Source: a virus (taxonomy: Duplodnaviria > Heunggongvirae > Uroviricota > Caudoviricetes). Taken from it: DNA of 64,000 nucleotides. The notes under the pieces were generated by a model, which ran no database searches, was not told where the DNA came from, and was given only the letters and a program-made list of their open reading frames with translations. Shown here one piece after another: positions 1-17,848 of the stretch; position 1 is the first letter of the stretch, and each line of letters opens with the position of its first letter. A program made the position numbers and the translations under genes. The DNA lies in the IMG/VR virus record IMGVR_UViG_3300013126_000015, positions 22,818 through 86,817 of that record; one strand, given 5' to 3'.

Positions 1-22
1 TATTCTAGTATTAAATTTATCA

Positions 23-241
23 ATGAAACCAACTTATAAAGATTTAACAACACCGAGTAGATACAGAACAAAATTAGTAGACAAAGCTAAACACGTATTA
101 TGGGAATCTGATAACGACGTTTTTGAATTATCAGTAAAAATCTGGGATGCTATTCATGAATATGAAACCAGACAAACAATGCATGGATTAGGTGGATGTG
201 TTAAAAAAACATTTAAAGAATTGATTGACAATACAAAATAA
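23..241 (+). CDS. hypothetical early protein (72 aa)
   Basis: ATG ORF at window start; followed by consensus early promoter for next gene. Confidence 0.45.
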   Translation: MKPTYKDLTTPSRYRTKLVDKAKHVLWESDNDVFELSVKIWDAIHEYETRQTMHGLGGCVKKTFKELIDNTK

Positions 242-252
242 TCCTGTATACT
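225..252 (+). promoter_or_regulatory. sigma70-type early promoter (TTGACA 225-230, 16-nt spacer, TATACT 247-252)
   Basis: read directly; SD AGGAGA and ATG 282 downstream. Confidence 0.6.
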
Positions 253-281
253 ATCCCCATAATCAAATATAGGAGAACATT

Positions 282-524
282 ATGAAAGTTTCACAAAAAA
301 ATCTTAACGCATTAAGACAATTTCAAATGTATGATAATGTCTTATTGACATCCGAAGAATCTGAAGAATGTGGTTATATTAGCAACATTCTCATGAATAC
401 ACATGATGAAATCGTGTTTGAAGTAACAGTTCCTGTTTATTCCATAATAGTAGGTGAAAGTATTACAATAAAAAGAAAAGTTCATCCATATAGCAAATCG
501 TGTGAAATGACTAGATTAAGTTAG
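282..524 (+). CDS. hypothetical early protein (80 aa)
   Basis: ATG with AGGAGAA SD 8 nt upstream. Confidence 0.5.
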   Translation: MKVSQKNLNALRQFQMYDNVLLTSEESEECGYISNILMNTHDEIVFEVTVPVYSIIVGESITIKRKVHPYSKSCEMTRLS

Positions 525-533
525 GAGAACATC

Positions 534-695
534 ATGCACTTCATATTATTTTTAATCATGGTCTGGATGATCATTGATTATTGTGAAAAACATACAATTG
601 CTGATTTTGTTGGTGGTGTTTTTAAATTTATCATTTCAGCAATGGTCGGTGGTATTATGATTATATTCATATTAGCTGCATATGCCGGTCATTAA
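534..695 (+). CDS. small hydrophobic membrane peptide (53 aa, MHFILFLIMVWMII...)
   Basis: unlisted ORF; SD TTAGGAGAAC before ATG 534; stop TAA 693-695. Confidence 0.4.
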   Translation: MHFILFLIMVWMIIDYCEKHTIADFVGGVFKFIISAMVGGIMIIFILAAYAGH

Positions 696-700
696 AATAC

Positions 701-728
701 TTGACAAATCAAAATAATCCTGTATACT
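701..728 (+). promoter_or_regulatory. sigma70-type early promoter (TTGACA 701-706, TATACT 723-728)
   Basis: 16-nt spacer; shared motif atcctgTATACTat. Confidence 0.6.
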
Positions 729-759
729 ATACACCATCTTAAATCAATTGGAGAACAAC

Positions 760-1014
760 ATGAAAACCTTAACCTTCAAACAATTGATATTAATTTTGGT
801 GAATGCGTATGCCATTGAATTTGATTGTAACTTGGTATATCCATCTGTAAATGAAGATGAATCATTCGAAGTAACAATTGATGATTATGAATTGTATTTT
901 ACTGAAAATGATGTAAAATCAATTGAAGTATATGAAGCTGGTTATCGTATCAGATTCGAGGTAACATCTGGTGCAGTTTATGTTATTCAACCTTTGGATA
1001 TAATGAAATTTTAA
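760..1014 (+). CDS. hypothetical early protein (84 aa); ORF track start 748 is TTG, ATG at 760 preferred
   Basis: GGAGAA SD before ATG 760. Confidence 0.5.
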   Translation: MKTLTFKQLILILVNAYAIEFDCNLVYPSVNEDESFEVTIDDYELYFTENDVKSIEVYEAGYRIRFEVTSGAVYVIQPLDIMKF

Positions 1015-1042
1015 TTGACAAATCAAAATAAAGGTGTATACT
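1015..1042 (+). promoter_or_regulatory. sigma70-type early promoter (TTGACA 1015-1020, TATACT 1037-1042)
   Basis: 16-nt spacer, AGGAGAA SD then ATG 1076. Confidence 0.6.
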
Positions 1043-1075
1043 ATACACCATACAAAATCAATTAGGAGAACTGTC

Positions 1076-1482
1076 ATGGCATACATCAATCAAGAACAAA
1101 AAAAGTAATTGCCCCTAAAATTAAAGCATTATGCAAAGAATATGGGGTTAACGGTACATTGTCAATTGACCATCATTCCACCATTGTATTGACGATAGCA
1201 TCAGGTAAAATTGATTTTATCGGTAACTATAACAAAGTCGTTGGGGGAAAACATCATGAAAACTTTACCCCAGTAACGGATGATATGAGTATCAATCCAT
1301 ATTGGTTTCATGAACATTTCGACGGTGCTGCAAAAGAATTTCTAACCAAAGCAATTAAAGAATTAAAAGGTGAAGGATGGTTCGATAACTCTGACATCAT
1401 GACCGATTATTTCCATGTTAAACATTATGTTAATGTTAAAGTAGGTAAATGGAATCGTCCTTACGTCTTGACAAATAATTAA
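1076..1482 (+). CDS. hypothetical protein; ATG 1076 frame stops after 10 codons, 107-aa ORF continues in -1 frame (candidate -1 frameshift at A_AAA_AAG 1099-1105, or homopolymer indel)
   Basis: ATG 1076 with SD; the -1 frame (1159..1482) has no ATG or SD of its own. Confidence 0.35.
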
Positions 1483-1495
1483 AATCCTGTATACT
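1468..1495 (+). promoter_or_regulatory. sigma70-type early promoter (TTGACA 1468-1473, TATACT 1490-1495)
   Basis: 16-nt spacer. Confidence 0.6.
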
Positions 1496-1527
1496 ATTAC
1501 CATCAAATAAACAAAGTGGTGACCGAA

Positions 1528-1722
1528 ATGTTAAATCTATTATTAGTGTACATACTTGGTTTCATTATAATGTATATCTGGGTTAGTGTATTGGATTTAG
1601 CATTACTTGCAACCTCTGAAGGAACAATGCATATCCCACAAAGTAGCAGTGTTATATATGCAATGAGATGGCCTAAAATTACATTTAGATTGTTGCAAGT
1701 GTGGTTATCAATAGAATTTTAA
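1528..1722 (+). CDS. small hydrophobic membrane protein (64 aa); track start 1516 is GTG
   Basis: ATG 1528 with GGTGA SD; strongly hydrophobic N-terminal half. Confidence 0.45.
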   Translation: MLNLLLVYILGFIIMYIWVSVLDLALLATSEGTMHIPQSSSVIYAMRWPKITFRLLQVWLSIEF

Positions 1723-1723
1723 C

Positions 1724-1751
1724 TTGACATTTTCTAAATTTGTATTATAAT
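1724..1751 (+). promoter_or_regulatory. sigma70-type early promoter (TTGACA 1724-1729, TATAAT 1746-1751)
   Basis: 16-nt spacer. Confidence 0.55.
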
Positions 1752-1783
1752 AAACTCACTTTCAAACACACAGGACAAAAATC

Positions 1784-2032
1784 ATGAGAACCATAACCTT
1801 CGAAGAATTTGCAAAATTGGTTGATGATGCAACCGCTGTAATTATCGATCATAATGCAGTAGTTTATCCAGTCGTTGAAGATGATGAAGTAATCGTCGAA
1901 GATGATAACTTCTCAGTCACATTCGATGAAGATGCTGGATCATTCACAATTCTGGATGATGGCAGTATTGAAATTGTAATGGTTGATGAAACATTCAACA
2001 TTCAAGTTTTACAAGTTAAAGTATTAGAATAA
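1784..2032 (+). CDS. hypothetical acidic protein (82 aa)
   Basis: ATG ORF after promoter. Confidence 0.5.
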   Translation: MRTITFEEFAKLVDDATAVIIDHNAVVYPVVEDDEVIVEDDNFSVTFDEDAGSFTILDDGSIEIVMVDETFNIQVLQVKVLE

Positions 2033-2077
2033 ACTGAATTCCCCTATAATAAATATTATTTTATGGGGGAAATAAAA

Positions 2078-2230
2078 ATGCTAACAATATGGTCTCTAAT
2101 AACAATCGCAACAATTCTGTTTATTGTCCTTGGACATAAATTACATATGCAAGGATTTGTAACAATTGGATCAGTAATGATGCTGGTAGGATGTTTACAA
2201 ATAATAGCAGAATTTGCCGCACTACTATAA
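2078..2230 (+). CDS. small hydrophobic membrane peptide (50 aa)
   Basis: unlisted ORF MLTIWSLITIATILFIVLG...; GGGGGA SD. Confidence 0.35.
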   Translation: MLTIWSLITIATILFIVLGHKLHMQGFVTIGSVMMLVGCLQIIAEFAALL

Positions 2231-2241
2231 GGAATACAGTC

Positions 2242-2466
2242 ATGTTAAAAGATAAAAGAGTCACCATCCTGTACCAAGGTCATTATGCCACAGGTACAGT
2301 AGTGAAGTCAATTCATACTGAAACAATCGGTATTGAAGAAGATGTCGAAAAGGTTATTCTGCATAAAGTAAAACTTGACAAACCATTGCAAGTAATCTGG
2401 GATGATGTTCAAAAATTTGTAACCAGTGTTCTGGTTGATCATTCAAGAGTTGAAGTAATTTCTTGA
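2242..2466 (+). CDS. hypothetical protein (74 aa); track ORF 2191 trimmed to ATG 2242
   Basis: AAGGA SD before ATG 2242. Confidence 0.45.
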   Translation: MLKDKRVTILYQGHYATGTVVKSIHTETIGIEEDVEKVILHKVKLDKPLQVIWDDVQKFVTSVLVDHSRVEVIS

Positions 2467-2491
2467 CAAACTATCGGGGATAGGTTATACT
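2463..2491 (+). promoter_or_regulatory. sigma70-type early promoter (TTGACA 2463-2468, TATACT 2486-2491) with inverted repeat GGGGATAG/CTATCCCC flanking the -10
   Basis: 17-nt spacer; palindrome 2476-2498. Confidence 0.6.
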
Positions 2492-2515
2492 ATCCCCATA
2501 CTTTAGGAGAACATC

Positions 2516-2683
2516 ATGAAAACATTTGAAGTAAAAATGACAATAGTTCTAACAGATGATGCTAAACATCCAAGAACATGGTTTGCAGACGTTGTTAACG
2601 CAAATCTGTTTGATAAAGAAGGTGAACATATATTGGATTATGATGTTAACGAGGTAGAAAATAAAGTTGATGATACAAACTAG
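2516..2683 (+). CDS. hypothetical small protein (55 aa)
   Basis: unlisted ORF; TTAGGAGAACATC ATG. Confidence 0.4.
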   Translation: MKTFEVKMTIVLTDDAKHPRTWFADVVNANLFDKEGEHILDYDVNEVENKVDDTN

Positions 2684-2880
2684 GAGAATATCAATATAAT
2701 ATCAATGCCTGAATTTCTGGAGCAATACCAAAATGTTAAGTAATTATAATAAAATGGTATTAAGGTGTCAATATGAACCATTACCAAACATTCGTATAAA
2801 ATCATCCTATCCACATTACAGAATGATGGACAAAGGATACAAATCTAAAAAACATTCTAAACTAATAGTAAGGTACTAAT

Positions 2881-3147
2881 ATGAAATCGATTGATGTTGT
2901 AAATGCTATCCTGAACAATGGTTATTCAAATGATGAATTGAATAATATCGCAATGGCAATAAAACATGCCCGACACAATCAAGCCATTGTTAATAAGTTT
3001 ACTCTTAAAGTCGGTCAAAATGTACAATTCAATCATGCCGGTATTACCCGTCACGGTACAATCAAAAAAATCAATCGAACCACAATGACTGTTTCAACTG
3101 ATGCCGGATTGTGGAAAGTCCCAGCTAACATGCTAACATTGGTATAA
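2881..3147 (+). CDS. hypothetical protein (88 aa)
   Basis: ATG ORF with AAGG SD. Confidence 0.5.
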   Translation: MKSIDVVNAILNNGYSNDELNNIAMAIKHARHNQAIVNKFTLKVGQNVQFNHAGITRHGTIKKINRTTMTVSTDAGLWKVPANMLTLV

Positions 3148-3150
3148 ATC

Positions 3151-3555
3151 ATGTCTCCAATTCAAACAGCTCAAAATATCGCAATCAGATTGTTTTTTTC
3201 CAATGTAAATGGCGATGAAAATGATGCTTATAATCATTTATATGAATGTGATAATCCTTACACCACTTACATCGATGATCATTTCGTTGGTAAACCATTT
3301 CAACCTTGGCAACCATTCGAATTTCGTACCGTAGCCGATATTCAAGAATATGTCGAAAATCTGGTCAATGACATTTTCAGATCAACCAATGAACCAGATG
3401 ATGGTGAAGAAGTCGGTGAAAATGCCCCAGAATCATCCACCAGTGATGCGGTTGAATGTCCTGAATGTCATAGCACCACTATAACAAAGAAAGGTCGTGA
3501 TGGCAATCGTCAACGGTTTAAATGTAAAGATTGTGGAAAACATTTCTATCAATAA
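3151..3555 (+). CDS. hypothetical protein with C-terminal transposase-like zinc-ribbon (CPECHS...CKDCGKHF)
   Basis: C4 zinc-ribbon motif resembling IS1/IS1595 transposase N-terminal DNA-binding domains. Confidence 0.45.
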   Translation: MSPIQTAQNIAIRLFFSNVNGDENDAYNHLYECDNPYTTYIDDHFVGKPFQPWQPFEFRTVADIQEYVENLVNDIFRSTNEPDDGEEVGENAPESSTSDAVECPECHSTTITKKGRDGNRQRFKCKDCGKHFYQ

Positions 3556-3559
3556 TCTC

Positions 3560-3587
3560 TTGACATTCTGAAATAATCCTGTATCAT
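3560..3587 (+). promoter_or_regulatory. sigma70-type early promoter (TTGACA 3560-3565, TATCAT 3582-3587)
   Basis: 16-nt spacer. Confidence 0.5.
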
Positions 3588-3620
3588 ATAACCATCTTCA
3601 AACGATACAGGATTCAAATC

Positions 3621-3812
3621 ATGAACACCAAACAGGCATACACATTCATTGTATTCATTATCAATAATGGATACGTTCAATATCGAACTGATACCAATGC
3701 TACCGGTTCATCACCAACAACACATCATAACAAAACATCACAACAAGTGATCGATGAATATCTCGAATCATTTAGAAAATATTATCATGATGTAGAATAC
3801 GAAATCATATAG
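3621..3812 (+). CDS. hypothetical protein (63 aa)
   Basis: ATG ORF. Confidence 0.45.
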   Translation: MNTKQAYTFIVFIINNGYVQYRTDTNATGSSPTTHHNKTSQQVIDEYLESFRKYYHDVEYEII

Positions 3813-3942
3813 GGTTCCCGCTGCGCTATCTCTATATGATACCTGTATGGTCGAGGGTTCCCGCTGCGCTATCTAGCGATGCTCAATTGTGGTAGGTTCC
3901 CGCTGCGCTATCTAGCGATGCTCAATTGTGGTAGGTTCCCGC
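3811..3942. repeat. GC-rich tandem direct repeat: GGTTCCCGCTGCGCTATCT x3 plus partial 4th; two exact 39/40-bp units 3855-3894 and 3895-3933
   Basis: read directly; lies between stop of gene 3621..3812 and promoter at 3952. Confidence 0.8.
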
Positions 3943-3951
3943 AAATATCTC

Positions 3952-3979
3952 TTGACATTCTCAAATTTTCAGGTATCAT
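3952..3979 (+). promoter_or_regulatory. sigma70-type early promoter (TTGACA 3952-3957, TATCAT 3974-3979)
   Basis: 16-nt spacer. Confidence 0.5.
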
Positions 3980-4011
3980 ATACACATATTCAAATCAGAT
4001 GAGATTAGATC

Positions 4012-4269
4012 ATGTCTACTAAAAAATATATCGACCTAGCCGATCAAATCAAAAATCAACTCAACATTGCATTCAAACGTAGAGATGCTCCAATGTTCAT
4101 CTACTATCAACAAATGCAAAATGATCCTAATATCATTGCCTTCGCATCATATGAAACATTCAAGGGTTCATGGGCATATCAAGAATGGTATAAAAAGAAT
4201 AGACCAGCTATCGATGAATTTGTAAAGAATAATTATAACCGTTATCAAATTATATGGAGCGCAACATAA
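4012..4269 (+). CDS. hypothetical protein (85 aa)
   Basis: ATG ORF. Confidence 0.5.
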   Translation: MSTKKYIDLADQIKNQLNIAFKRRDAPMFIYYQQMQNDPNIIAFASYETFKGSWAYQEWYKKNRPAIDEFVKNNYNRYQIIWSAT

Positions 4270-4577
4270 TGAACTCTGTTAAACAATCTGATAATATTTG
4301 CACCGTTGGATATAGAAATATCTGGGGAAACTTTACACAATCTGAAATCAATCTATTGTGTAATGCGGTCAAAGAAGGTAGATTATGTTCAACTCAATAT
4401 ACAGAACGTTGGGATATAAATCACCCTGAACGTTTAGACAAATATATTCAATATCGCAAACGTCATAATCTATATGTAATGGACTTGTGGGGTTTCTATT
4501 TCGATTATCCCGCACATCTTAATGATAGAGTTTGGCAAATCATTAACACATGGATGCCCCTACTATCTAATCAATAG
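4269..4577 (+). CDS. hypothetical protein (102 aa), TAATG overlap with upstream gene
   Basis: ATG 4269 overlaps stop 4267-4269, in frame with track ORF 4254. Confidence 0.45.
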   Translation: MNSVKQSDNICTVGYRNIWGNFTQSEINLLCNAVKEGRLCSTQYTERWDINHPERLDKYIQYRKRHNLYVMDLWGFYFDYPAHLNDRVWQIINTWMPLLSNQ

Positions 4578-4688
4578 TTTCACATGATGTTTCACATGAT
4601 GAGCGCACCGCGCCATCACCGATCACATTATTAAAATTCTATCATATCATCTTATCAAAAATCTGCTGAATAGTTCACAATTTTAAAC

Positions 4689-4716
4689 TTGACATTCTAC
4701 CGGATTATGGTATCTT
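4689..4716 (+). promoter_or_regulatory. candidate early promoter (TTGACA 4689-4694, TATCTT 4711-4716); second TTGACA at 4744-4749
   Basis: read directly; weaker -10. Confidence 0.35.
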
Positions 4717-4805
4717 ATATCCAACGATTTAGGAAATGATTGCTTGACAATCTTTCTAAAATCTGAAATAATATACTCACTTTCAAAACATATAGGAAAA
4801 AAGCC

Positions 4806-5300
4806 ATGACTACCGAATCCAGAACCACTCTTCGCGATGTTGTTGATAGTCCATTGTTCGACGCTATTTTGGGGCGTAAAAAAGGACAATTCGCTACCGT
4901 ATCAACTGAACGTGAATGCAAAGTCAGAAAAGGTAAAGATCCGATTCAAAAACACTCTACCTTTACAATTCGGGTCGGTGTCAATTATGATAACCAAGCC
5001 GCAGTCGTCGAAAAAAGTGAAAACGGTGATTTGCCTAGTGAAAACAATGGTTTACCATGGGGCGAATGGGTCGATGGATATTTTCCATACTTGATCGAAC
5101 ATAAAGGATTATACTACGTCAGACTGACTCCAGTCTACGGAAACGATAACAACAAACAAACAGCATCATACTATCGCAATGGTGTGGAAATTTCACGCGA
5201 TGAAGCGCAAGCCGATTGTTTGGCAAGTGAATTTCCAAAAGAAAAAACAGAACATAATGCTATGACTGTCAAATTTGATAGCATTGTCACAGTAAAATAA
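4806..5300 (+). CDS. hypothetical protein (164 aa)
   Basis: ATG ORF. Confidence 0.5.
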   Translation: MTTESRTTLRDVVDSPLFDAILGRKKGQFATVSTERECKVRKGKDPIQKHSTFTIRVGVNYDNQAAVVEKSENGDLPSENNGLPWGEWVDGYFPYLIEHKGLYYVRLTPVYGNDNNKQTASYYRNGVEISRDEAQADCLASEFPKEKTEHNAMTVKFDSIVTVK

Positions 5301-5311
5301 CTTGACATTAT

Positions 5312-5337
5312 ACTGGGGTTATGAAACAATAACCCCA
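5312..5337. other. 9-bp inverted repeat CTGGGGTTA...TAACCCCAG (hairpin) right after gene stop and after a TTGACA (5302-5307)
   Basis: read directly. Confidence 0.5.
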
Positions 5338-5368
5338 GTCAATTAAACATCATATGAGGGTTGCCGCC

Positions 5369-5548
5369 ATGTTCACACAATCAATAGCAATACCAGTTGA
5401 CAATATCCACGTCAAATATATTGAATCAGATGATATTGAACGTTTGAAATCAATGGTAAAAGAAAGCGCTGTAATGATGATGTCAACCATTCTCAACGTC
5501 GATTTTGAATCAGCCGAACGATTCTATACTCTGATTTTTAAAAAATAA
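5369..5548 (+). CDS. hypothetical protein (59 aa)
   Basis: ATG 5369 with GAGGG SD; track start 5354. Confidence 0.4.
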   Translation: MFTQSIAIPVDNIHVKYIESDDIERLKSMVKESAVMMMSTILNVDFESAERFYTLIFKK

Positions 5549-5554
5549 AAGTAT

Positions 5555-5588
5555 GCGGATAATGTGAACAAAATCTCACATTATCCGC
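5555..5588 (+). terminator. 13-bp perfect inverted repeat GCGGATAATGTGA-N8-TCACATTATCCGC hairpin
   Basis: read directly, 3' of gene 5369..5548; followed by TTGACTTT. Confidence 0.45.
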
Positions 5589-5663
5589 TTGACTTTCCAT
5601 CCAAAGTTTGAAATAATATACGCACGTTCTGGATGAACAGAAGCCGCTATAAGCGGTGGCCCT

Positions 5664-6332
5664 TTAAAGGCTAGACCAGCTCGATCTTAAAAAAATAATA
5701 TGATTGTATAATGGATGATTAACTGATTCAGGTAATAACTTATCTGATTTTAATATATTATCTAATTTCCATAATGGTCTTAAATTAGAATAATGATTTA
5801 ATAATAGCAATTCATCATAATTATTGGCAAAAGATAATGGCACTATATGATCTATATCCCATAAGTTTCTATTATCCCATGTCATATTATATAAAAACAA
5901 TGATTCGATATGAAGTTTAAACGTATTATAGTCACACCCTAATATATTAGTGGTTAATGATAATTTAGTATAACCTGAACGCTTAATAGCTTTTTTAATC
6001 ATTCCTCTAATACTGGATTTTAATTTTAATAATGTTTCATCCTTTTTCTGTGTTGGTTTTTTATATTTAATACTGATACATTGTTTGCACCATGATTTAT
6101 ATCCTGTCTTAGTTGAGTTATCAGGATGAAAATCCTCAACAGAACGTACCACGTTGCATTTTGAGCATTGTTTGTGTGATATGGCATCATGTATAAGGGA
6201 TTGTCTAAAATCTTTGTCATACGCTTTACAGCATGCCTTACATGATGATTTATACCCGTCTTTAGTTTCTTTGCTTCGATAGTAGTCTGATAATGATTTA
6301 TCAATCAAACATTTTTTACATTGCTTTATCAT
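5664..6332 (-). CDS. HNH homing endonuclease (Mob-like) with two N-terminal CxxC...CxxC zinc-finger modules
   Basis: DIDHIVP HNH motif; GGAG SD; opposite orientation within early + strand cluster. Confidence 0.7.
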   Translation of the reverse strand: MIKQCKKCLIDKSLSDYYRSKETKDGYKSSCKACCKAYDKDFRQSLIHDAISHKQCSKCNVVRSVEDFHPDNSTKTGYKSWCKQCISIKYKKPTQKKDETLLKLKSSIRGMIKKAIKRSGYTKLSLTTNILGCDYNTFKLHIESLFLYNMTWDNRNLWDIDHIVPLSFANNYDELLLLNHYSNLRPLWKLDNILKSDKLLPESVNHPLYNHIIFLRSSWSSL

Positions 6333-6437
6333 AATAACTCCATGGTGTCAATAACTATTTATCTTTCCAAGGTAGGCTGTCTATAATTTATAAACGGTAC
6401 TAGTTCACAATTTTTTACATAATGATGAAAATAATTA

Positions 6438-6465
6438 TTGACAATCTAAAAAAAACAAGTAGAAT
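6438..6465 (+). promoter_or_regulatory. sigma70-type promoter (TTGACA 6438-6443, TAGAAT 6460-6465)
   Basis: 16-nt spacer. Confidence 0.45.
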
Positions 6466-6474
6466 AATATCCAT

Positions 6475-6516
6475 GTTCTGGAAGCGATAGTCGCATCCAG
6501 AACGGGCATTAAGCCC
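6475..6516 (+). other. two stem-loops in 5' leader of gene 6551 (GTTCTGGA...TCCAGAAC with inner GCGA/TCGC; GGGC-ATTAA-GCCC)
   Basis: read directly. Confidence 0.5.
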
Positions 6517-6550
6517 ACCCCAGCAATGGGAATAATTTTAGGTAATTATC

Positions 6551-7306
6551 ATGTTCGTATCAAAATTGTTAATCAGTGTTGGCGCAACAGCGGCATATTT
6601 CACATTGCGTGAAACATTTTTAGGACATAATGATCGGGTAATGTCGTTCCATCATTTTAACCTTAGTCAAGACGCAGATGTTGCATTCGAAAAAGCATTA
6701 GCATACAGCCATAACAATGGCATAGAGTTGGTAACTGACCGGGAAACAATGATAACTGAAATGCGTGAAATTCAACGGTCTAGTGCTGAACAATTAGCCG
6801 AACGTAAAGCCAAAATTGAAAGTGCTGATGCAGAACATCAAGCATACTTGAAAAAAGCGCATGATGAAAAAATAGAATTGATCGAGCAAGGTTTATATCC
6901 TTTTGGTCAATATTATAATAAACCTTTTGCTAGTGCTGCGGTGTCATACCTGCAATGGTTAATCAACACCGATTTTACTGATTGCAATGATGTTATCAAA
7001 TTATTGCAAATTAAAGTAACAGAGCAATGCAAACACCTTTTGCCGAATCCTGATGCTACTATTGGTACAGTTGGCAAACGTGAAACATTCAACGTTAAAA
7101 TTACCCGTTTAATACGGTGTGAAGGTTTCTATGGTGTATCCTATATCTGCACCATGGTAACACCTGACAATGTTGTCATGGTATCTAAAGGTGCGTTTGC
7201 TGCCGATGTTGGTGATACCCTTACCATCAAAGCAACTGTTAAGGAATATAGTCGATACAATGGTCAAATGCAAACCGTTATCCAACGTGTTGCAATAGTG
7301 AAATAA
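6551..7306 (+). CDS. hypothetical protein (251 aa)
   Basis: ATG with AGGT SD. Confidence 0.5.
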   Translation: MFVSKLLISVGATAAYFTLRETFLGHNDRVMSFHHFNLSQDADVAFEKALAYSHNNGIELVTDRETMITEMREIQRSSAEQLAERKAKIESADAEHQAYLKKAHDEKIELIEQGLYPFGQYYNKPFASAAVSYLQWLINTDFTDCNDVIKLLQIKVTEQCKHLLPNPDATIGTVGKRETFNVKITRLIRCEGFYGVSYICTMVTPDNVVMVSKGAFAADVGDTLTIKATVKEYSRYNGQMQTVIQRVAIVK

Positions 7307-7527
7307 GACAATCTGAAGCGATTGTAGCCTATCCTGTATCATGACTGCTATACTGGTGCAGGATAATGAATGGTCAGCCTTAAATCGAATTGTAGGGGGT
7401 TTTATGTTAAGCATCATACTAATGACAATTGTGATCATTGTCGCAATAACAATAAACATTATGGTTGACAAGTTAGCATAATCGTTTATAATATTATCTG
7501 TAATTTAACCAACACGGGAATAAGATC

Positions 7528-7704
7528 ATGACCACTCAATATAATACAATGTCAGATGATGAACTGGACACCATGGGCAATGGTAATGATAATCATATCA
7601 TTGACCTTGGGGATGATGATGACGATAATGATTACTATTCAGATGATAGTGATAGTGACATTGTATTCGCGAATGATTACTTCGAATGTGATAACGATTT
7701 CTAA
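7528..7704 (+). CDS. small highly acidic protein (58 aa, D-rich)
   Basis: unlisted ORF; followed by hairpin terminator. Confidence 0.35.
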   Translation: MTTQYNTMSDDELDTMGNGNDNHIIDLGDDDDDNDYYSDDSDSDIVFANDYFECDNDF

Positions 7705-7713
7705 GTAGCATAG

Positions 7714-7749
7714 ATCATGCCATGTTATGATGTATAGCATGGCATGATT
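7714..7749 (+). terminator. rho-independent terminator-like hairpin: 11-bp inverted repeat ATCATGCCATG-N14-CATGGCATGAT followed by T-rich tract
   Basis: read directly. Confidence 0.5.
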
Positions 7750-8030
7750 ATTATAAAATAATTTTAGATGCTTGGTATTATACTTGCATAAAATTATTTT
7801 TTTATTTTTTGAGAGCTTGGTGTATTATATTTAAAATAATACTTGCAAATTTTCAAACTACTTGCAAATTTTTCAAATAATTCTTTCCAAAAATAAATTC
7901 CAAAAATAAATTCTAAAATAACCCCCAAAATAAAACTTACCCCTGCCAGAAATGTCCTATACCAGAAAAATACCCCCCACCCTCAAAAATTGTCGAAGTA
8001 TATTTTTTGTATACATGCGGAAATTTAGTT
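7750..8030. repeat. non-coding AT-rich region with direct repeats (GCTTGGT..TATTATA x2; TACTTGCA(A/T)A x3; CCAAAAATAAATT x2) and C-rich G-poor tract
   Basis: read directly; lies between convergent genes. Confidence 0.6.
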
Positions 8031-8414
8031 TTATGTAAATGCCACTTTAAATATATTTTCAGCTAGTATAGATTTGATTATTTGATTAAAATTTTGTTCA
8101 GAGAAAGTAAAATCAAAGGTACGATTATTAAATGTTGCGTTTATTCTAGGATGATTATTAATAAAATAAATTTGCCAGCGAATATAAAATGAATATCTTT
8201 TTCCCATACTAGATGGATTAGAATAGAACTCATAGTTATGACTAATGCTACCATGTTCTGCATTGCAGGCAAATAGTACTAAATTATTACTTGATAATAA
8301 ATTATTCATATTGGCTAGTAATTCATCCATTTTATTATCGATTAGTAATTGAATGTTGGTAGAGTCTTTATTGGCTTTAGAAATTAAATATTCATTCATT
8401 GAGTTGGTTAGCAT
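8031..8414 (-). CDS. hypothetical protein (127 aa)
   Basis: ATG ORF; extended -10 TGCTATAAT at 8450-8458 upstream. Confidence 0.45.
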   Translation of the reverse strand: MLTNSMNEYLISKANKDSTNIQLLIDNKMDELLANMNNLLSSNNLVLFACNAEHGSISHNYEFYSNPSSMGKRYSFYIRWQIYFINNHPRINATFNNRTFDFTFSEQNFNQIIKSILAENIFKVAFT

Positions 8415-8449
8415 ATTGAATTACTCCGTTTTGTTTAAGGTATGATGTT

Positions 8450-8458
8450 ATTATAGCA
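8450..8458 (-). promoter_or_regulatory. extended -10 element TGCTATAAT for gene 8031..8414
   Basis: read directly on minus strand. Confidence 0.4.
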
Positions 8459-8574
8459 AGGTATCAGTCTAATGACAAGTAGTAAAATCATCCTGGAAAA
8501 TAGAAAAGGTAAAAAAGTATAAGTACCCGATAAAAAAATTATCGAGCTATATTTTTTGTATACATACGGAAAAT

Positions 8575-9159
8575 TTATTTATAGGTAAACAAACTACTGA
8601 AATAATTATCTTCTTTTTGTGGTGTTGAGAATGAGTAATCATACTCTAATCCATCTGCACAAACGATATTAATAAATTTAGTAGTATTTGATTTTAATTT
8701 GAACATTGCGATCAACCCTTTTTTGGAACGATGTGATCTTGAAAGTTCCATGATACCAAAATCTTTATTGCCGCTTTTTTTATAGATAATGATATCATCA
8801 TCATTAACCATATATAATCGTTTAATGGTTTCGATACAGTTATCGAACATTAGGTCAACGCCATAAATGGTTGATAGTGCGGTTTCATAATCTATCCCAT
8901 TTTCCATTTTCTTTATTAATATTTCAGATAGGAATTGACCATCACCGCATGTTGGATCGAGGAATGTTTTTTTAGGATTGGTGAATAGTTCAAGAGGTAA
9001 TTGATTTAGCATTTCTTGAACTAATTTAGTAGGGGTAAAAACTTCACCGGTAGATTTTATTCTAGTTTTTTCACGTTCGACACCTGACATATAATCACGA
9101 TTTCTAGCATGGTCTATGATATTGTTTAACATTGTCTTATCCATGTTTATTGAGTTCAT
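8575..9159 (-). CDS. N6-adenine methyltransferase-like protein, short paralog (motif X FTP + motif I DPTCGDGQFL, no NPPY)
   Basis: SAM-binding motif I; N-terminus paralogous to 9196..10377. Confidence 0.5.
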   Translation of the reverse strand: MNSINMDKTMLNNIIDHARNRDYMSGVEREKTRIKSTGEVFTPTKLVQEMLNQLPLELFTNPKKTFLDPTCGDGQFLSEILIKKMENGIDYETALSTIYGVDLMFDNCIETIKRLYMVNDDDIIIYKKSGNKDFGIMELSRSHRSKKGLIAMFKLKSNTTKFINIVCADGLEYDYSFSTPQKEDNYFSSLFTYK

Positions 9160-12718: not shown

Positions 12719-13102
12719 TTATATAGGGGAAAAATTTTTAACTAATTTATTTGGATAGAAAGAAACGATATCTGCAGTATATATTGGAATATTATTTATG
12801 GTGAAGGTAGGTTGAGTATAAGGGTTATAGTAAATGATATTGTTGGAATTAATATTGATGAAAGAGAACAGGTAACCTTGAACACCTGCATGGACATTTT
12901 TTTTATTTTCTTTGATTACTCTTTGTCTACCTTTTTCGGATACTTTGAAAGTACAATTGGAAAGGGTTAGGTTTTGAGTATGGGCGATTACTTTATTTTT
13001 ATGTTTTATAGACCAGCAAGATTTGTGTATATTCCAGTATACGAATACTTTGGTACCATATAGAGAAGGAGGGATAGTATTATAGAAAGGGATGTTATTC
13101 AT
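12719..13102 (-). CDS. hypothetical protein (127 aa)
   Basis: ORF; ATGA overlap with next gene. Confidence 0.4.
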   Translation of the reverse strand: MNNIPFYNTIPPSLYGTKVFVYWNIHKSCWSIKHKNKVIAHTQNLTLSNCTFKVSEKGRQRVIKENKKNVHAGVQGYLFSFININSNNIIYYNPYTQPTFTINNIPIYTADIVSFYPNKLVKNFSPI

Positions 13103-13305
13103 AATGTTAAAAGGAACATGGTGATATGGTGTTCATCGCCTTCTAATACTCCCCAATATCCACTATCATGTTGAGTTTTGCATTCTGAATAAGACAGGTG
13201 GTATTGTTGCTGGATAATATTGTTCCACTCATGCAATCGTCGTTTACTATGACCTAACTTTTTCAATAATATATTCCATTGGTCTGATGATAGGTAATAT
13301 TTCAT
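13099..13305 (-). CDS. tandem paralog family I small protein (MKYYLS...EGDEHHITMFLLTL)
   Basis: conserved N- and C-terminal motifs shared with neighbours. Confidence 0.55.
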   Translation of the reverse strand: MKYYLSSDQWNILLKKLGHSKRRLHEWNNIIQQQYHLSYSECKTQHDSGYWGVLEGDEHHITMFLLTL

Positions 13306-13535
13306 AATTGTAGTAGGAACATAGTGATATGGTGTTCATCACCTTCTATTATGCTATAGTATCCTGAATCTGATTCATGATATGATAGTTTTGTGTGATA
13401 ATAATTAGAGTTCCAGTATTTTAATCTATCCTGGTATGATAGAGCTTGATAATATGCAGAATCCTGATCCCATTTATCAAGATCGGTGTTATCCCATAAT
13501 TTATTATATTGTTCATTAGACAGGTAATATTTCAT
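13302..13535 (-). CDS. tandem paralog family I small protein
   Basis: MKYYLSNEQYNKLW...EGDEHHITMFLLQL. Confidence 0.55.
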   Translation of the reverse strand: MKYYLSNEQYNKLWDNTDLDKWDQDSAYYQALSYQDRLKYWNSNYYHTKLSYHESDSGYYSIIEGDEHHITMFLLQL

Positions 13536-13550
13536 AAAAATATTTATTGA

Positions 13551-14096
13551 TTATGCAGTAGTCAAGTTATGTTTATGAATCCAGAATTGTAGTTTATCTA
13601 ATTCTATGTCATTGATCCAAAATTCTTCATATTCAATATTGCCATTATCGAAATATCTGGTTACTGCAGGGCCATTATCGTTATGTCTGTTGCCATTGAT
13701 CCAAAATCCTTCTTCAATGATATTGCCATTTTCGGAATAATAGATTGATGCAGGTCCATTCTCATTGTGTGTTTTGCCATTAATGGAATATCGTTCATAC
13801 CTGATATTACCATTTGGATGAAATTCAACAATTGCAGGACCATATTCGTTATGGTATCTACCGAGTATGAGGTATTGTTTAGATTCAATATTACCATTCT
13901 CCCAATAAGAAATATATGCAGGCTCGTTGATATTATGTCGTTGGCCATTCTCCCAATATTCTGTTGATGCTATAGTACCATTATCGTAATAAGTAATGAT
14001 TGGATTCGGCATAATATTGTGATTTATTTTATTAAGTGTAGATATATTATACCATGATATTGAGTGGATGTCAAGTGATAGATCATAATTCTGCAA
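13551..14096 (-). CDS. MORN-repeat protein (>=6 repeats YxENGxxxxxxYWxNG)
   Basis: repeat pattern in translation. Confidence 0.55.
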   Translation of the reverse strand: MQNYDLSLDIHSISWYNISTLNKINHNIMPNPIITYYDNGTIASTEYWENGQRHNINEPAYISYWENGNIESKQYLILGRYHNEYGPAIVEFHPNGNIRYERYSINGKTHNENGPASIYYSENGNIIEEGFWINGNRHNDNGPAVTRYFDNGNIEYEEFWINDIELDKLQFWIHKHNLTTA

Positions 14097-14361
14097 GGAT
14101 AAAGATTGTTATATGATTTTCATCACCAATTAATCTACCCCAGAATCCTGGATAGTCAGTAAGTTTGATAGATGGTGGGTGATCTTCTGATTCTATATAA
14201 TCTATGTTAAATTGATTTCTAAAAGTTTTTTTCCAATAATCATTTCTTTGTTTGACGGTAAGGACTTCATCATATTTTGGTTGATCACTATACTGATTCC
14301 ACCAGATTAAGTTCCATTGTTTGCGAGTTAGATCATATTTCATAATTGTAATAAGAACCAA
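14083..14361 (-). CDS. tandem paralog family I small protein
   Basis: ...GFWGRLIGDENHITIFILAEL. Confidence 0.5.
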   Translation of the reverse strand: MVLITIMKYDLTRKQWNLIWWNQYSDQPKYDEVLTVKQRNDYWKKTFRNQFNIDYIESEDHPPSIKLTDYPGFWGRLIGDENHITIFILAEL

Positions 14362-14567
14362 ATAATTTGTTTTTCTTCACCTTCTAACCATCCCCAGAAT
14401 CCTGGTTCTGATGGTGAATATGATAAGATTTCATCATATGATAAGTTAGTTGATGATTCCATATTATCTAACCAGTATCCAATTCGTCTTTCTATTTGTG
14501 TTATATCATATAGTCCTTTATCCCACCATATGCGTTTAAATTCATTTTCAGATAGGTAATATTTCAT
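14340..14567 (-). CDS. tandem paralog family I small protein
   Basis: MKYYLSENEFKRIW...EGEEKQIIWFLLQL. Confidence 0.55.
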   Translation of the reverse strand: MKYYLSENEFKRIWWDKGLYDITQIERRIGYWLDNMESSTNLSYDEILSYSPSEPGFWGWLEGEEKQIIWFLLQL

Positions 14568-14806
14568 AGTTGTAATAGAAGTATATTAATATATTTTTCA
14601 TCACCGTTGATAATAGCAACATGATCATTACATGAAGTATTGTATGTTTCCATATATGTAATATTTGGATATGTTTCATCCCAAAGTATATATCTACTCA
14701 TTTTACATTTGTATTCACCATCTAGTGGTTCAGTGATCCATTGAGATGGTTCAAATAGACAATACCATATAGTATTCCATTGATTATATGTAATATAATG
14801 AATCAT
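14564..14806 (-). CDS. tandem paralog family I small protein
   Basis: ...NGDEKYINILLLQL. Confidence 0.5.
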   Translation of the reverse strand: MIHYITYNQWNTIWYCLFEPSQWITEPLDGEYKCKMSRYILWDETYPNITYMETYNTSCNDHVAIINGDEKYINILLLQL

Positions 14807-15120
14807 ATATACTGGTGATCTTTACAAAATAATTTAATTGATTTTTCTAATTGTGATTTATCAATTAAATTATAACGTCTTCTTAATGTAGAGAGTGACA
14901 CAGATTTATTATTTTTTGCCCAAGAGCCATATAGTGGTATAGAATGCAAAGTAGTTGACCATGGGTATACATATGTCTCTATTTGATAAGTATATTCACC
15001 GACTATATCTTTTAAAATCAAGTTGATTCTTAGATAAGTTGATGGTTCTGAATAATAATGATTGGTGAATATAAATCCATATTTCAGGATTGACATTGTT
15101 TCGGTATTAGTTAAGTTCAT
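14803..15120 (-). CDS. hypothetical protein (105 aa)
   Basis: ORF in array, overlapping stop/start. Confidence 0.4.
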   Translation of the reverse strand: MNLTNTETMSILKYGFIFTNHYYSEPSTYLRINLILKDIVGEYTYQIETYVYPWSTTLHSIPLYGSWAKNNKSVSLSTLRRRYNLIDKSQLEKSIKLFCKDHQYI

Positions 15121-15180
15121 TGTTATGATATACCACGGTTATGTTAATAGTAGTATATCATAATTTTTGTATTATGTCAA

Positions 15181-16332
15181 CTATTGCCAATTGTATAGAT
15201 CGTCAAGATGTTTTTGCCATGCATGGATGGTGGGGTATTTTTGGAGGAATTGACCCTTTAATGGATTGTGACCCATATTTTTTAATCCAGCCTGATATGA
15301 TGTTTGTACCATTAATTTTTCCAATTCATCCATTGATTGTGTTGTTTTAAGTGCAGTTACCAAATGAGATTGATCATATGTTCTATTGTTGGCATATGTT
15401 TTTAATAATTCTTGTTTAGCTGGAGTATTTTTCATACGTTGAACCCAACCTGCAACTCTATACTCATCTAATGCAGAACCAATTTGTTGATTTTCATTAT
15501 CTGATAATTGAATTAATAGTTTAGATAATTGTTCTAGTGTTTTTGCAGAATTCAGTTGATGCAATGTCTCTTTCATGAATCTACCATGTTGTTGCATATC
15601 TTTTACACTATCTGGGGAATATTTGTTATTATAACGTTTTATATTAGTAATCGCATCTTTTGAGAAGAATACTGCCTGATTTCTTTCTGATGTATGTATG
15701 ATACCGATACCTGGATCATAAGCTCCATCGATGCCAATATATCTAAACAAATGATTCCACACAATATGAGTATTAGTACCTTGATCATTTGAGCGGGAAG
15801 TAGAAAGTTCTTGTGCTACTTTCATTGTCACGTACCATAATCTACCACCGGCATAACTATCGAATTTAGCTTTTCTATCTGATTGATTGATATAATGTTC
15901 AACTATATCAACTGCATCTTTCCATGGCATATTGGCATTTTTGGTAAAGTAGTCAGCGATTTTTTGGTAATATACTACTAAGTCTTGATTAGACAGGGTT
16001 TTAAGATTAATAATATTACCGTTAGCTTGGAATATATTAACAAATGCTTGATCGCCTGCAAATGGTAGATAATCCATTGCAGTATCAGTATTAGTTTGGT
16101 TAATAACGAATGATGCTGGGTAAGCATAGATACCGATTGGGGTATCCCATTCAGATTTAGGATTTATGCCTAATTTATCGACTGAAGTAAATGATACAAA
16201 GCAATTTACTTCATCTAAATTATCTAATGATGGTGCATTATGAAATGCATTAATAATAATATCATTAATGGATGTCTTAGGATTTTGTTTAGGATTTTTT
16301 CTTTTTTCAGTAATAAATTCATTTGCTCTCAT
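15181..16332 (-). CDS. putative packaged internal protein with T4-type capsid targeting sequence (MRANEFITE)
   Basis: N-terminus matches T4 IP CTS pattern xEF(I/L)xE; shared with 20245 and 20877 genes. Confidence 0.45.
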   Translation of the reverse strand: MRANEFITEKRKNPKQNPKTSINDIIINAFHNAPSLDNLDEVNCFVSFTSVDKLGINPKSEWDTPIGIYAYPASFVINQTNTDTAMDYLPFAGDQAFVNIFQANGNIINLKTLSNQDLVVYYQKIADYFTKNANMPWKDAVDIVEHYINQSDRKAKFDSYAGGRLWYVTMKVAQELSTSRSNDQGTNTHIVWNHLFRYIGIDGAYDPGIGIIHTSERNQAVFFSKDAITNIKRYNNKYSPDSVKDMQQHGRFMKETLHQLNSAKTLEQLSKLLIQLSDNENQQIGSALDEYRVAGWVQRMKNTPAKQELLKTYANNRTYDQSHLVTALKTTQSMDELEKLMVQTSYQAGLKNMGHNPLKGQFLQKYPTIHAWQKHLDDLYNWQ

Positions 16333-16381
16333 AGTAAGTATTTATCACTATAGATGCAATATAAACCAGTTAATTGATATC

Positions 16382-16669
16382 TCATATATTTAAAAGGAAC
16401 CAGTTAATTGATTTTTTAGATCCTGTTAGTATACCCCAGTATCCATCAAAATCATTATCATTATCTATAATAAGACCATAATGGTCTACCTGTGCTGGTA
16501 ACTCATTATAAGATAATTTATATTTATGTTTAAAATTATTCTTCCATATGGATTTTCTAACAAGAATAGCTTCGTAACAATTGGAGTTTGCATCAGATGT
16601 AACCTCGTTAACCCAATCAGTCCATATGGTCCAATATTGGTTTTCAGTTAGATAGTGTTTATATCTCAT
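16382..16669 (-). CDS. tandem paralog family I small protein
   Basis: ...GYWGILTGSKKSINWFLLNI. Confidence 0.5.
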   Translation of the reverse strand: MRYKHYLTENQYWTIWTDWVNEVTSDANSNCYEAILVRKSIWKNNFKHKYKLSYNELPAQVDHYGLIIDNDNDFDGYWGILTGSKKSINWFLLNI

Positions 16670-16905
16670 AATTGTAAAATAAAGAAGTTGATGTGTTTTT
16701 CATTGCCAAATATAATCCCATACCATCCATATGGTGTATCATCGTCGTCACTTATGTCGTTATTTTCGTAGTATCGTAATTTATACTTAGATTTAACATA
16801 CTGATTCCATTTAGATAATCTAATTGGGTAATATTCAACTGTGGGGGAAACATTATATTCCCCCCACAATCTACTATATTGTTCACCGGATAATTCGTAT
16901 CTCAT
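16666..16905 (-). CDS. tandem paralog family I small protein
   Basis: ...GIIFGNEKHINFFILQL. Confidence 0.5.
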   Translation of the reverse strand: MRYELSGEQYSRLWGEYNVSPTVEYYPIRLSKWNQYVKSKYKLRYYENNDISDDDDTPYGWYGIIFGNEKHINFFILQL

Positions 16906-17165
16906 AATTTAAGAAGCAGCATTATTATTCTATTTTTAGTACCATATAGAGAACCATAGTAAATATCTGATGATTCATCTTCTGAAGTATTATATCTTAT
17001 TTTATATTTTTGTTTAATAAATGGAATCCAATTAAATGGGTCTGTATGAGATAACCTATTGGATTTTTGGTGATCGTTGTATTCTGGATCATTACAAATT
17101 AAAGCATGTAGCGATTCAAATTGGGTGTCATTTAGTATAATGTTCATAGTTGTAATAATATCCAA
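16902..17165 (-). CDS. tandem paralog family I small protein
   Basis: ...GSLYGTKNRIIMLLLKL. Confidence 0.45.
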   Translation of the reverse strand: MDIITTMNIILNDTQFESLHALICNDPEYNDHQKSNRLSHTDPFNWIPFIKQKYKIRYNTSEDESSDIYYGSLYGTKNRIIMLLLKL

Positions 17166-17407
17166 TTAATATTACGTTCATCGCCTTCTAATACTCCCCA
17201 ATATCCTTCTGGTAAATCAATATCGTAGATATGGAGTTCTTCATAATATTTTACATTGGTGGCTGGGTATCTTTCCGTAAAAATACGGGCACGTTTATCA
17301 GCCGCAATAATAGATGATAGCCCAAAAAAATCAGACATATAGTTATCCCACAACTTATAAAATTGTTCGCTAGAAAGATAATATCTCATAGTTGTAATAA
17401 TAACCAA
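17144..17407 (-). CDS. tandem paralog family I small protein
   Basis: MRYYLSSEQFYKLW...GYWGVLEGDERNINWILLQL. Confidence 0.55.
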   Translation of the reverse strand: MVIITTMRYYLSSEQFYKLWDNYMSDFFGLSSIIAADKRARIFTERYPATNVKYYEELHIYDIDLPEGYWGVLEGDERNINWILLQL

Positions 17408-17601
17408 TTAATGTTTTTTTCACTGCCAGTTAACATCCCCCAGAATCCTGGTTCTGATAATCGCTCAGAATAGAGAACGTTATTTTTACTTAACCATTCT
17501 TTAACCTCCAGATCAGTAGGTTCATGATACCACAAATCATTATACTGTTCTTCTGATAGAAAATATGTTATATCATCATTCATATTTGTAATAATAACCA
17601 A
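17386..17601 (-). CDS. tandem paralog family I small protein
   Basis: ...GFWGMLTGSEKNINWLLLQL. Confidence 0.55.
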   Translation of the reverse strand: MVIITNMNDDITYFLSEEQYNDLWYHEPTDLEVKEWLSKNNVLYSERLSEPGFWGMLTGSEKNINWLLLQL

Positions 17602-17840
17602 TTGATATATTTTTCATCCCCTGATAATACTCCATAATATCCCTCTCCATAATATCCCTCTTCATATTCGTCACTATTTTCATAATAAATTATATTCAAA
17701 TGTGCATAACGAGTAGTCCACAATGATTTTCTATTTTCATATTCGATAGACATATCATACTGTGGATCTGCCCATTGTTCATCATTTATAACGGTGTACC
17801 ACAGGTTTGTCCATTGATTTGATGATAGATAGTATTTCAT
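17580..17840 (-). CDS. tandem paralog family I small protein
   Basis: MKYYLSSNQWTNLW...SGDEKYINWLLLQI. Confidence 0.55.
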   Translation of the reverse strand: MKYYLSSNQWTNLWYTVINDEQWADPQYDMSIEYENRKSLWTTRYAHLNIIYYENSDEYEEGYYGEGYYGVLSGDEKYINWLLLQI

Positions 17841-17848
17841 AATTTATC

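Follow-up and report, generated by a model that had tools for sequence, protein, structure and literature searches.

A gap between convergent genes of a large phage as a possible zone of transcription termination and insulation

In bacteriophage T4, a middle promoter comprises a MotA site in the -30 region and a sigma-70 -10 element, the origins oriF and oriG comprise a middle promoter and an AT-rich unwinding element, and the origin oriE contains evenly spaced 12-nt repeats for which a role as iterons in replication is not established (PMC3016281). Active T4 origins lie near strand-switch points, at sites of transcriptional divergence that coincide with a shift in compositional bias (PMC3016281). 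In the so-called hyperplastic regions of T4-type phages, PeSL cassettes are found in which repeated regulatory sequences, composed of terminators and promoters, bracket small orphan genes, in parts of the genome that vary among close relatives (PMC2839356, PMC4122927). In intrinsic terminators, which may occur in tandem, a U-rich tract comes directly after a stable stem-loop, whereas Rho-dependent terminators call for at least 70-80 nt of C-rich, G-poor RNA that is unstructured and free of ribosomes, with C residues spaced 11-13 nt apart. In the RhoTermPredict implementation, the Rho-utilization (RUT) rule asks for a 78-nt window with a C/G ratio above 1 and a C every 11-13 nt, and a second step looks at the next 150 nt for either a GG-N8-YG element or a pause hairpin that is GC-rich (PMC6407284).

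Here we describe a gap between two convergent genes of a large phage, at 7705-8030, and compare it with each of these systems. We establish the anatomy and the composition of the gap, the lack of structure in its RNA outside a single hairpin, and the variability of the locus at which it lies. The reading that we tentatively favor is that the gap constitutes a zone of transcription termination and insulation where two opposing gene blocks meet.

The gap and its genomic setting

The whole stretch of DNA that was analyzed (64 kb; hereafter the window) belongs to a large phage of the T4-superfamily or jumbo type with a GC content of 32%, the GC content along the window ranging from 29 to 39%. The DnaB-type helicase of this phage shares ~50% identity with its counterparts in jumbo phages such as Pseudomonas phage PA5oct, and 45% with the helicase of Agrobacterium phage Atu_ph07. 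Other coding content includes a UvsW-like SF2 helicase, a Toprim primase-like protein, nicotinamide phosphoribosyltransferase (NAMPT), and DNA methyltransferase-like and endonuclease VII/HNH-like proteins; no tRNA genes were found in the 64-kb window. A 75.6-kb Logan contig (run SRR11049220) carries the identical stretch, and the proteins of the window are on record in a 102-kb JGI contig. In the phage collection, by contrast, nothing similar to the window was found at the DNA level. Genes in the window are short, often overlapping and tightly packed. To the left of the gap lies a rightward block (1-7704) of small early-type genes, arranged as cassettes behind near-identical strong promoters, and to its right a long leftward block that extends from 8031 to ~47.5 kb. 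With a strong promoter defined by a score of at least 11 on a 12-plus-bonus scale, the window contains ~50 strong host-type promoters, most of which have a TTGACA element, a spacing of 16-18 nt and a TG-extended -10 element.

Several other features of the window came to light in the course of this work. In the rightward block, near-identical strong promoters (TTGACAAATCAAAATAATCCTGTATACTAT and variants of it, at 215-275, 690-750, 1004-1066, 1457-1519, 3542-3604 and 3934-3996) precede the small genes in the manner of shuffled promoter cassettes. The most repeat-dense spot in the window is a 39-bp tandem array of 3-4 copies at 3804-3963, which is GC-rich within an AT-rich genome, has the palindromic core CGCTATCTAGCG, and is situated just upstream of the promoter at 3952; this could be a protein-binding array, and it may break assemblies, because the Logan contig begins inside it. 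Two 5' leaders that follow strong promoters (5625-5663 and 6470-6500) open with the same GTTCTGGA-containing hairpin, which may be a leader element common to both, and a 46-aa ORF with a hydrophobic C-terminal half (7341-7481, + strand), which overlaps the strong promoter at 7465-7492, may specify a small membrane protein overlooked by gene callers. Further along, the ~8 small leftward genes at 13086-17842 are a tandem paralogous family, with repeats of 49-97 nt at 60-80% identity around their junctions. The NAMPT gene (29822-31282, - strand) is probably an auxiliary gene for NAD salvage, and the gene at 55509-56459 (- strand), whose product is a fusion of a response-regulator receiver domain with a GGDEF diguanylate cyclase (Pfam E 1e-43 and 4e-24), is a possible phage-carried c-di-GMP signaling gene.

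Of all true intergenic gaps in the window, this one is the largest. It had been described in an earlier note, made from the DNA letters alone, as a ~320-bp non-coding, repeat-rich region between convergent genes, a description that our analysis bears out: the gap spans 326 bases, lies between an ORF at 7528-7704 on the + strand and an ORF at 8031-8414 on the - strand, and contains no credible ORF of its own, being overlapped only by TTG-start or SD-less ORFs of 20-44 aa. A small protein encoded within the gap was considered and rejected on this ground. The immediate surroundings of the gap are as follows.

7465-7492, + strand: promoter of the gene at 7528-7704, a perfect TTGACA-16-TATAAT
7528-7704, + strand: last rightward gene, encoding a 58-aa acidic protein
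7985-8031, no strand assigned: 47-nt direct repeat, 85% identical to 8534-8580, the two copies 549 nt apart
8031-8414, - strand: orphan gene, the last of the leftward block, encoding 127 aa, with its own promoter at 8478-8450

The proteins encoded around the gap are thus the 58-aa acidic protein, the orphan, an N6-MTase-like protein and a PHROG 3628 protein of no known function; a search of 5.8 billion proteins for homologues of the orphan returned only the orphan itself. Both copies of the 47-nt repeat directly follow the stop codon of a leftward gene, and together they bracket the orphan gene and its promoter. The copy at 8534-8580 leads into a hairpin (8547-8525) that is terminator-like, whereas the copy in the gap contains a 15-nt G-rich insertion where the other has the terminator hairpin. 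In this way the 47-nt repeat ties the right end of the gap to the terminator-bearing 3' flank at 8525-8580. Such an arrangement of repeats around the orphan gene is the pattern expected of cassette gain through recombination between terminator flanks. Beyond the 47-nt repeat, the gap shows no significant similarity to any other part of the window.

The sequence of the gap is a real, non-random feature. It contains 18 repeated 9-mers, compared with 2.1 +/- 2.1 in dinucleotide-preserving shuffles (none of 1000 of which reached 18), and by its density of repeated 9-mers it ranks among the top 1.2% of windows of the same size. The segment 7822-7921 has a GC content of 16%, which is tied for the lowest in the window. 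The hairpin, the families of short direct repeats and the C-rich tract that are described below all exceed chance.

Hairpins and a C-rich tract in the gap

The elements of the gap that bear on transcription termination are the following.

7714-7748, + strand: strong hairpin with arms at 7714-7728 and 7734-7748 that are 93% complementary, followed by UUAUUAUAA
7756-7799, + strand: weak AU-rich hairpin (-8.9 kcal/mol), followed by a T7-A-T6 run (14 nt) that extends to 7813
7861-7989, + strand: RUT-like tract, untranslated and unstructured, rich in C and poor in G, with C residues 11-13 nt apart
7968-8005, - strand: weak hairpin (-6.1 kcal/mol) that ends in GGGGGGUAUUU and is followed by UUCUGGUAU

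The strong hairpin, which the earlier note had placed at 7714-7749 and called a terminator, is real; it has 15-nt arms and is terminator-like by consensus scan, folding at -23.2 kcal/mol as + strand RNA and at -16.8 kcal/mol as - strand RNA. As in intrinsic terminators, the stable stem-loop, which lies 10 nt past the stop codon, is directly followed by a U-rich tail, here a moderately U-rich one with 5 U(T) residues within 8-9 bases. This hairpin is the candidate for the intrinsic terminator of the rightward unit. What distinguishes it from a typical intrinsic terminator, and counts against termination at the gap, is that A residues interrupt its U-tail. The segment that comes next (7756-7813), which includes the first GCTTGGT box and the first copy of TACTTGCA, resembles the downstream member of a pair of tandem intrinsic terminators in that a long T run comes after its hairpin, but differs in that its stem is almost wholly A-U; it is a possible second, tandem terminator.

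On the opposite strand, the hairpin at 8005-7968, which is made in part by the G-rich insertion in the 47-nt repeat, may serve the leftward gene as a weak terminator. For the leftward unit there is no convincing terminator, which also speaks against a termination zone. Apart from the strong hairpin, the RNA of the gap shows little structure. In particular, the segment 7755-8030, from which the strong hairpin is excluded, folds with a z score of -0.69 on the + strand and of -1.97 on the - strand relative to shuffles, the latter value being marginal, and the significance of the fold of the region as a whole stems from the hairpin at 7714-7748 alone.

The C-rich, G-poor tract that the earlier note had likened to a Rho-utilization site also proved to be real. 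There are 27 C residues and 4 G residues at 7910-7989, which makes this the second most extreme 80-nt window for C over G on the + strand, and the depletion of G is such that 8 G residues occur in 156 nt. Three of the 62 runs of four or more C residues in the window fall within 57 nt at 7922-7978 (at 7922, 7940 and 7973). When the first step of RhoTermPredict was run on both strands of the window, the top match on the + strand was 7861-7951, with a C/G ratio of 15:1, and the likeness to a Rho-utilization site thus holds under the published rule. Indeed, the gap provides C-rich, G-poor RNA of the length and the C spacing of Rho-dependent terminators, and this RNA is unstructured (z -0.69) and would be free of ribosomes, there being no credible ORF. 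As with Rho-dependent terminators (PMC6407284), the tract is at least 78 nt long, untranslated and unstructured, has far more C than G, and sits where read-through would turn antisense. It differs from them in what follows: we found no GG-N8-YG element in 7950-8140, and no GC-rich pause hairpin after the tract, where the only hairpin is an AT-rich one at 7987-8026 (-5.2 kcal/mol), so that the features sought by the second RhoTermPredict step are lacking. Because the phage relies on host-type promoters in the window, its use of host termination factors is plausible, and we infer a role for Rho at the gap, provided that the host has this factor.

Short repeats, promoter-like boxes and the question of an origin

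The short repeats and boxes of the gap all lie between the strong hairpin and the 47-nt repeat.

7770-7782 and 7815-7829, + strand: two copies of a GCTTGGT(GT)ATTATA box
7809-7837, + strand: best host-type promoter-like site of the gap, TTGAGA-17-TAAAAT, matching at 10/12 positions
7840-7877, + strand: 19-nt tandem repeat, TACTTGCAAATTTT(T)CAAA(C/T), in 2 copies, with a degenerate third at 7781-7794
7885-7918, + strand: 13-nt tandem repeat, TTCCAAAAATAAA, in 2.6 copies

These features correspond closely to the repeats that had been noted earlier. The TACTTGCAAATTTT-type repeat, for which three copies had been claimed, occurs exactly at 7840 and 7859 and with one mismatch at 7781; it has 5 matches in the window compared with 1.0 expected, a number that none of 100 shuffles reached. 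What had been seen as two tandem units is a 13-nt tandem of CCAAAAATAAATT. Both GCTTGGT...ATTATA copies are present as well, although the difference between them is an indel of 2 nt (GT) and not of 1 nt as had been stated. Each copy of the 19-nt repeat contains an imperfect dyad, TTGCAAA/TTTTCAA, evident on direct reading of the sequence, and these dyad-bearing repeats look like protein-binding sites. The first GCTTGGT box can also be read, at 7773-7781, as an extended -10 element, TGGTATTAT, of the kind that is used by the phage. The TTGAGA-17-TAAAAT site is far weaker than the ~50 strong promoters of the window. We rejected the idea that the repeats are decayed copies of early promoters, since local alignments of the repeats with 11 early promoters were no better than those of shuffles, and the T4 late promoter sequence TATAAATA is not present in the gap.

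The earlier note had pointed out that GCTTGG is followed ~11 nt later by TAAAAT, and had likened this to a MotA-dependent middle promoter of T4. The motif is there, as TGCTTGG-13-TAAAAT at 7769 and AGCTTGG-11-TAAAAT at 7814, and a TAAAAT 11-13 nt after both boxes fits the geometry of a -30 box and a -10 element (PMC3016281). However, the match to the MotA box is limited to a GCTT or TGCTT core, and the second box lacks the T of TGCTT. In the window, the motif TGCTTnA-N11-13-TAnnnT occurs 7 times (5.2 +/- 2.2 expected) and GCTT-N13-15-TAnnnT is depleted (23 occurrences, 43.6 expected); the GCTTGG version is confined to the two sites in the gap, the motif class is found upstream of no gene in the window, and downstream of the boxes there is no gene for them to express. 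Using the T4 activator MotA and co-activator AsiA, both from the T4 record, as queries in tblastn and phmmer searches, we found no match in the 64-kb window (best E 0.35). In the further 10 kb of the Logan contig no relative of either protein was found; the one short match there (E 0.03) lies in the frame of the helicase gene just upstream of its start, and is therefore not an AsiA gene. Because of the motif counts, the absence of a downstream gene and the absence of a MotA or AsiA relative in ~74 kb, we do not class the boxes as MotA promoters, and we regard T4-type MotA-dependent transcription from them as very unlikely.

The same boxes, together with the neighboring AT-rich DNA, had been taken to suggest an origin of the oriF/oriG type. 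If the gap were a replication origin, its repeats would bind a protein of the phage or the host, or a transcript would give rise to a persistent RNA-DNA hybrid, beside an AT-rich unwinding element; the promoter at 8478-8450 would yield a leftward transcript with a G-rich part over 7990-7920, ahead of the 16% GC segment at 7822-7921. Like oriF, oriG and oriE of T4, the gap has promoter-like boxes beside very AT-rich DNA, near a strand switch, and like the 12-nt iterons of oriE, its short direct repeats are evenly spaced. An origin would also accommodate the excess over chance of all three repeat families, the exceptionally low GC content of 7822-7921, the clustering of G or C runs at 7922-7978 and the presence of promoters near the gap. 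Against this, the genes converge at the gap and do not diverge, GC skew shows no inflection (the cumulative skew is flat across 0-28 kb), and by nearest-neighbor stability the gap is outside the six least stable segments of the window at 60, 100 and 150 bp; that is, the weak promoter-like sites are followed by a segment of 16% GC that is itself not among the least stable. Each repeat family has only 2-3 copies (2.6 of the 13-nt unit; 2 plus 1 degenerate of the 19-nt unit), which is fewer than in the typical arrays of iteron-type origins, be they of the lambda, plasmid or oriE-like style. The flanks contain no initiator-like gene, and no Rep-like domain was found.

The gap thus differs from oriF and oriG in having no MotA or AsiA found with it in ~74 kb and no enrichment of the MotA-box class, as well as in its convergent genes, its unshifted skew and its not exceptionally unstable DNA. 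Moreover, relatives lack the gap region, and its locus is a hypervariable one; a main origin, as an essential conserved element, is less expected at such a variable locus. The resemblance to a T4 oriF/oriG-like origin is therefore one of analogy only, and that the gap might serve as a replication origin strikes us as distinctly unlikely. Two more specific candidates, a transcript-primed origin of a little-known jumbo-phage lineage (with a persistent hybrid formed at 7990-7920 by leftward transcripts of the orphan gene, and priming in the 16% GC tract) or a rightward, G-depleted and A/C-rich RNA that would act as a sponge for a host RNA-binding protein, are quite improbable as well.

A regulated promoter with a non-coding RNA would give the boxes and repeats a different use. 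In such a scheme, either the TTGAGA-17-TAAAAT site at 7809-7837 or TGGTATTAT at 7773-7781 would drive a rightward, unstructured and A/C-rich RNA of ~190 nt, which would act as an antisense RNA or would titrate a protein, and the 19-nt repeats, which would fall at about +1 to +35, would be operators. Promoter-like sites are indeed present, the 19-nt units carry an imperfect dyad and are spaced 19 nt apart, the strong depletion of G suggests selection on a transcript, and the 13-nt repeats appear, from inspection of the letters, to contain two A-rich motifs of the AAnAAnAA type. Yet the promoter-like sites in the AT-rich stretch barely exceed those in shuffles (27 compared with 20.2 +/- 4.5), the best of them is far weaker than the real promoters of the phage, there is no clear terminator at the end of the putative RNA, and RNA structure is not significant. 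Comparison with Rfam 15 detected nothing in the window at the gathering score, and the best sub-threshold matches in 7300-8500 were at chance level. On balance, we consider a regulated promoter with a non-coding RNA to be unlikely.

Variability of the locus and the preferred reading

Megablast and blastn searches of 50,697 phage records with the gap and the DNA on either side of it gave no usable match, queries of viral and metagenome collections with the two flanking proteins, with the helicase and with the MTase-like gene yielded nothing for the gap, and no DNA homologue of the gap was found in phage, viral or metagenome collections. A short match in the closest relative (contig L002, 7205-7227; E 0.018) was rejected, as it corresponds to the -35/AT-rich stretch of a promoter region and not to a homologous region. 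The contig with the closest relative of the helicase (69% identity) stops inside the MTase-like gene, short of the gap region; in relatives at 55% identity, synteny is lost after the MTase gene, and unrelated genes on the same strand follow. Homologues of the MTase-like gene with 70-72% identity are followed in one case by a Dam-like gene and in the other by an early promoter and small ORFs, and the early promoter that follows the MTase-like gene in the 70%-identical relative (contig L022, 775-805) belongs to the promoter family of the window. Other genes thus occupy this locus in relatives, which indicates that the locus is variable and that cassettes come and go.

An exact-motif scan for the paired 19-nt repeat found it absent from viral contigs, and in metagenomes returned eight unrelated matches (in high-GC soil bacteria, a contig of 37% GC and a satellite-like array); a scan of viral contigs for the early-promoter family of the window found nothing. 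In five soil-metagenome contigs of 57-61% GC (L010, L012, L015, L016 and L017), tandem TACTTGCATAA(A/T)TT repeats occur just upstream of genes. Four of the five have a TTGCAT -35-like hexamer within reach of the repeats, which overlap it, and in the three of the contigs that are identical a CATAAT -10 element lies 17 nt further on. This arrangement is suggestive of an operator or promoter in certain high-GC bacteria, the contigs being unrelated to the window. In a contig that is related to the window (L007, helicase 56% identical), we observed a tmRNA at 8114-8450 of the betaproteobacterial or permuted type (Rfam 129-132 bits; tag ANDEVYALAA), together with genes for ribosomal protein S21, HSP70 and IMPDH, which offers a clue to the hosts that the wider group may infect. 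The same contig contains a gene-free, GC-richer stretch of 316 nt after its MTase genes (13689-14005) that looks structured and has no Rfam family match.

In several respects the locus resembles the PeSL cassettes of T4-type phages: repeated regulatory sequences bracket a small orphan gene, the locus differs between relatives, 47-nt repeats lie around 8031-8414, and early promoters are repeated in 1-7704. In contrast to PeSL cassettes, the 47-nt repeat has no recognizable promoter and is a putative site of recombination, and the center of the gap (7750-7985) matches none of the repeated cassettes. This setting raises the possibility that the gap beyond the strong hairpin has no function, and that it is what remains of a decaying cassette, made up of old promoter, terminator and gene fragments and expanded by slippage. 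Consistent with such decay, the locus is hypervariable, with an orphan gene bracketed by 47-nt repeats 549 nt apart; the rightward block contains repeated promoter cassettes, as in PeSL-mediated shuffling in T4-type phages (PMC4122927); and at the right end of the gap there is a copy of a terminator flank that has visibly decayed. Decay does not sit well, however, with the lack of significant similarity between the gap and the 11 early promoters of the window, with the presence of only 8 G residues in 156 nt, which is unlike neutral decay of the coding or promoter DNA of this phage, or with the tight packing of the rest of the genome. We therefore view a non-functional remnant as somewhat unlikely, while recognizing that this explanation and that of a termination zone overlap.

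A termination and insulation zone is the most economical account of the gap; in its favor, both flanking genes end there. On this account, rightward transcripts would start at the strong promoter at 7465-7492 and would reach first the strong hairpin at 7714-7748 and then the weak AU-rich hairpin with its T7-A-T6 run at 7756-7813. Polymerases that read through would go on to make a stretch of ~130 nt of RNA (7861-7989) that is rich in C, poor in G, unstructured and untranslated, on which host Rho may load, halting transcription before it enters the leftward genes in the antisense direction. Transcripts of the leftward orphan gene (8031-8414) would meet only a degenerate copy of the terminator of the neighboring gene. 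The short repeats, for their part, would have arisen through slippage and duplication within an AT-rich spacer, at a locus that gains and loses gene cassettes. We infer, then, that termination takes place at the gap and that the repeats serve no separate purpose; the retention of three repeat families and two GCTTGG boxes in a compact genome is more than termination by itself can account for.

An origin or a regulatory RNA, if proved, would matter more, as neither has been mapped in this phage lineage, and nothing in our analysis makes either of them likely. If the termination reading is true, the gap represents routine genome punctuation, of little consequence in itself, and would provide an example of how a large phage that depends on the host polymerase keeps opposing blocks of transcription apart.
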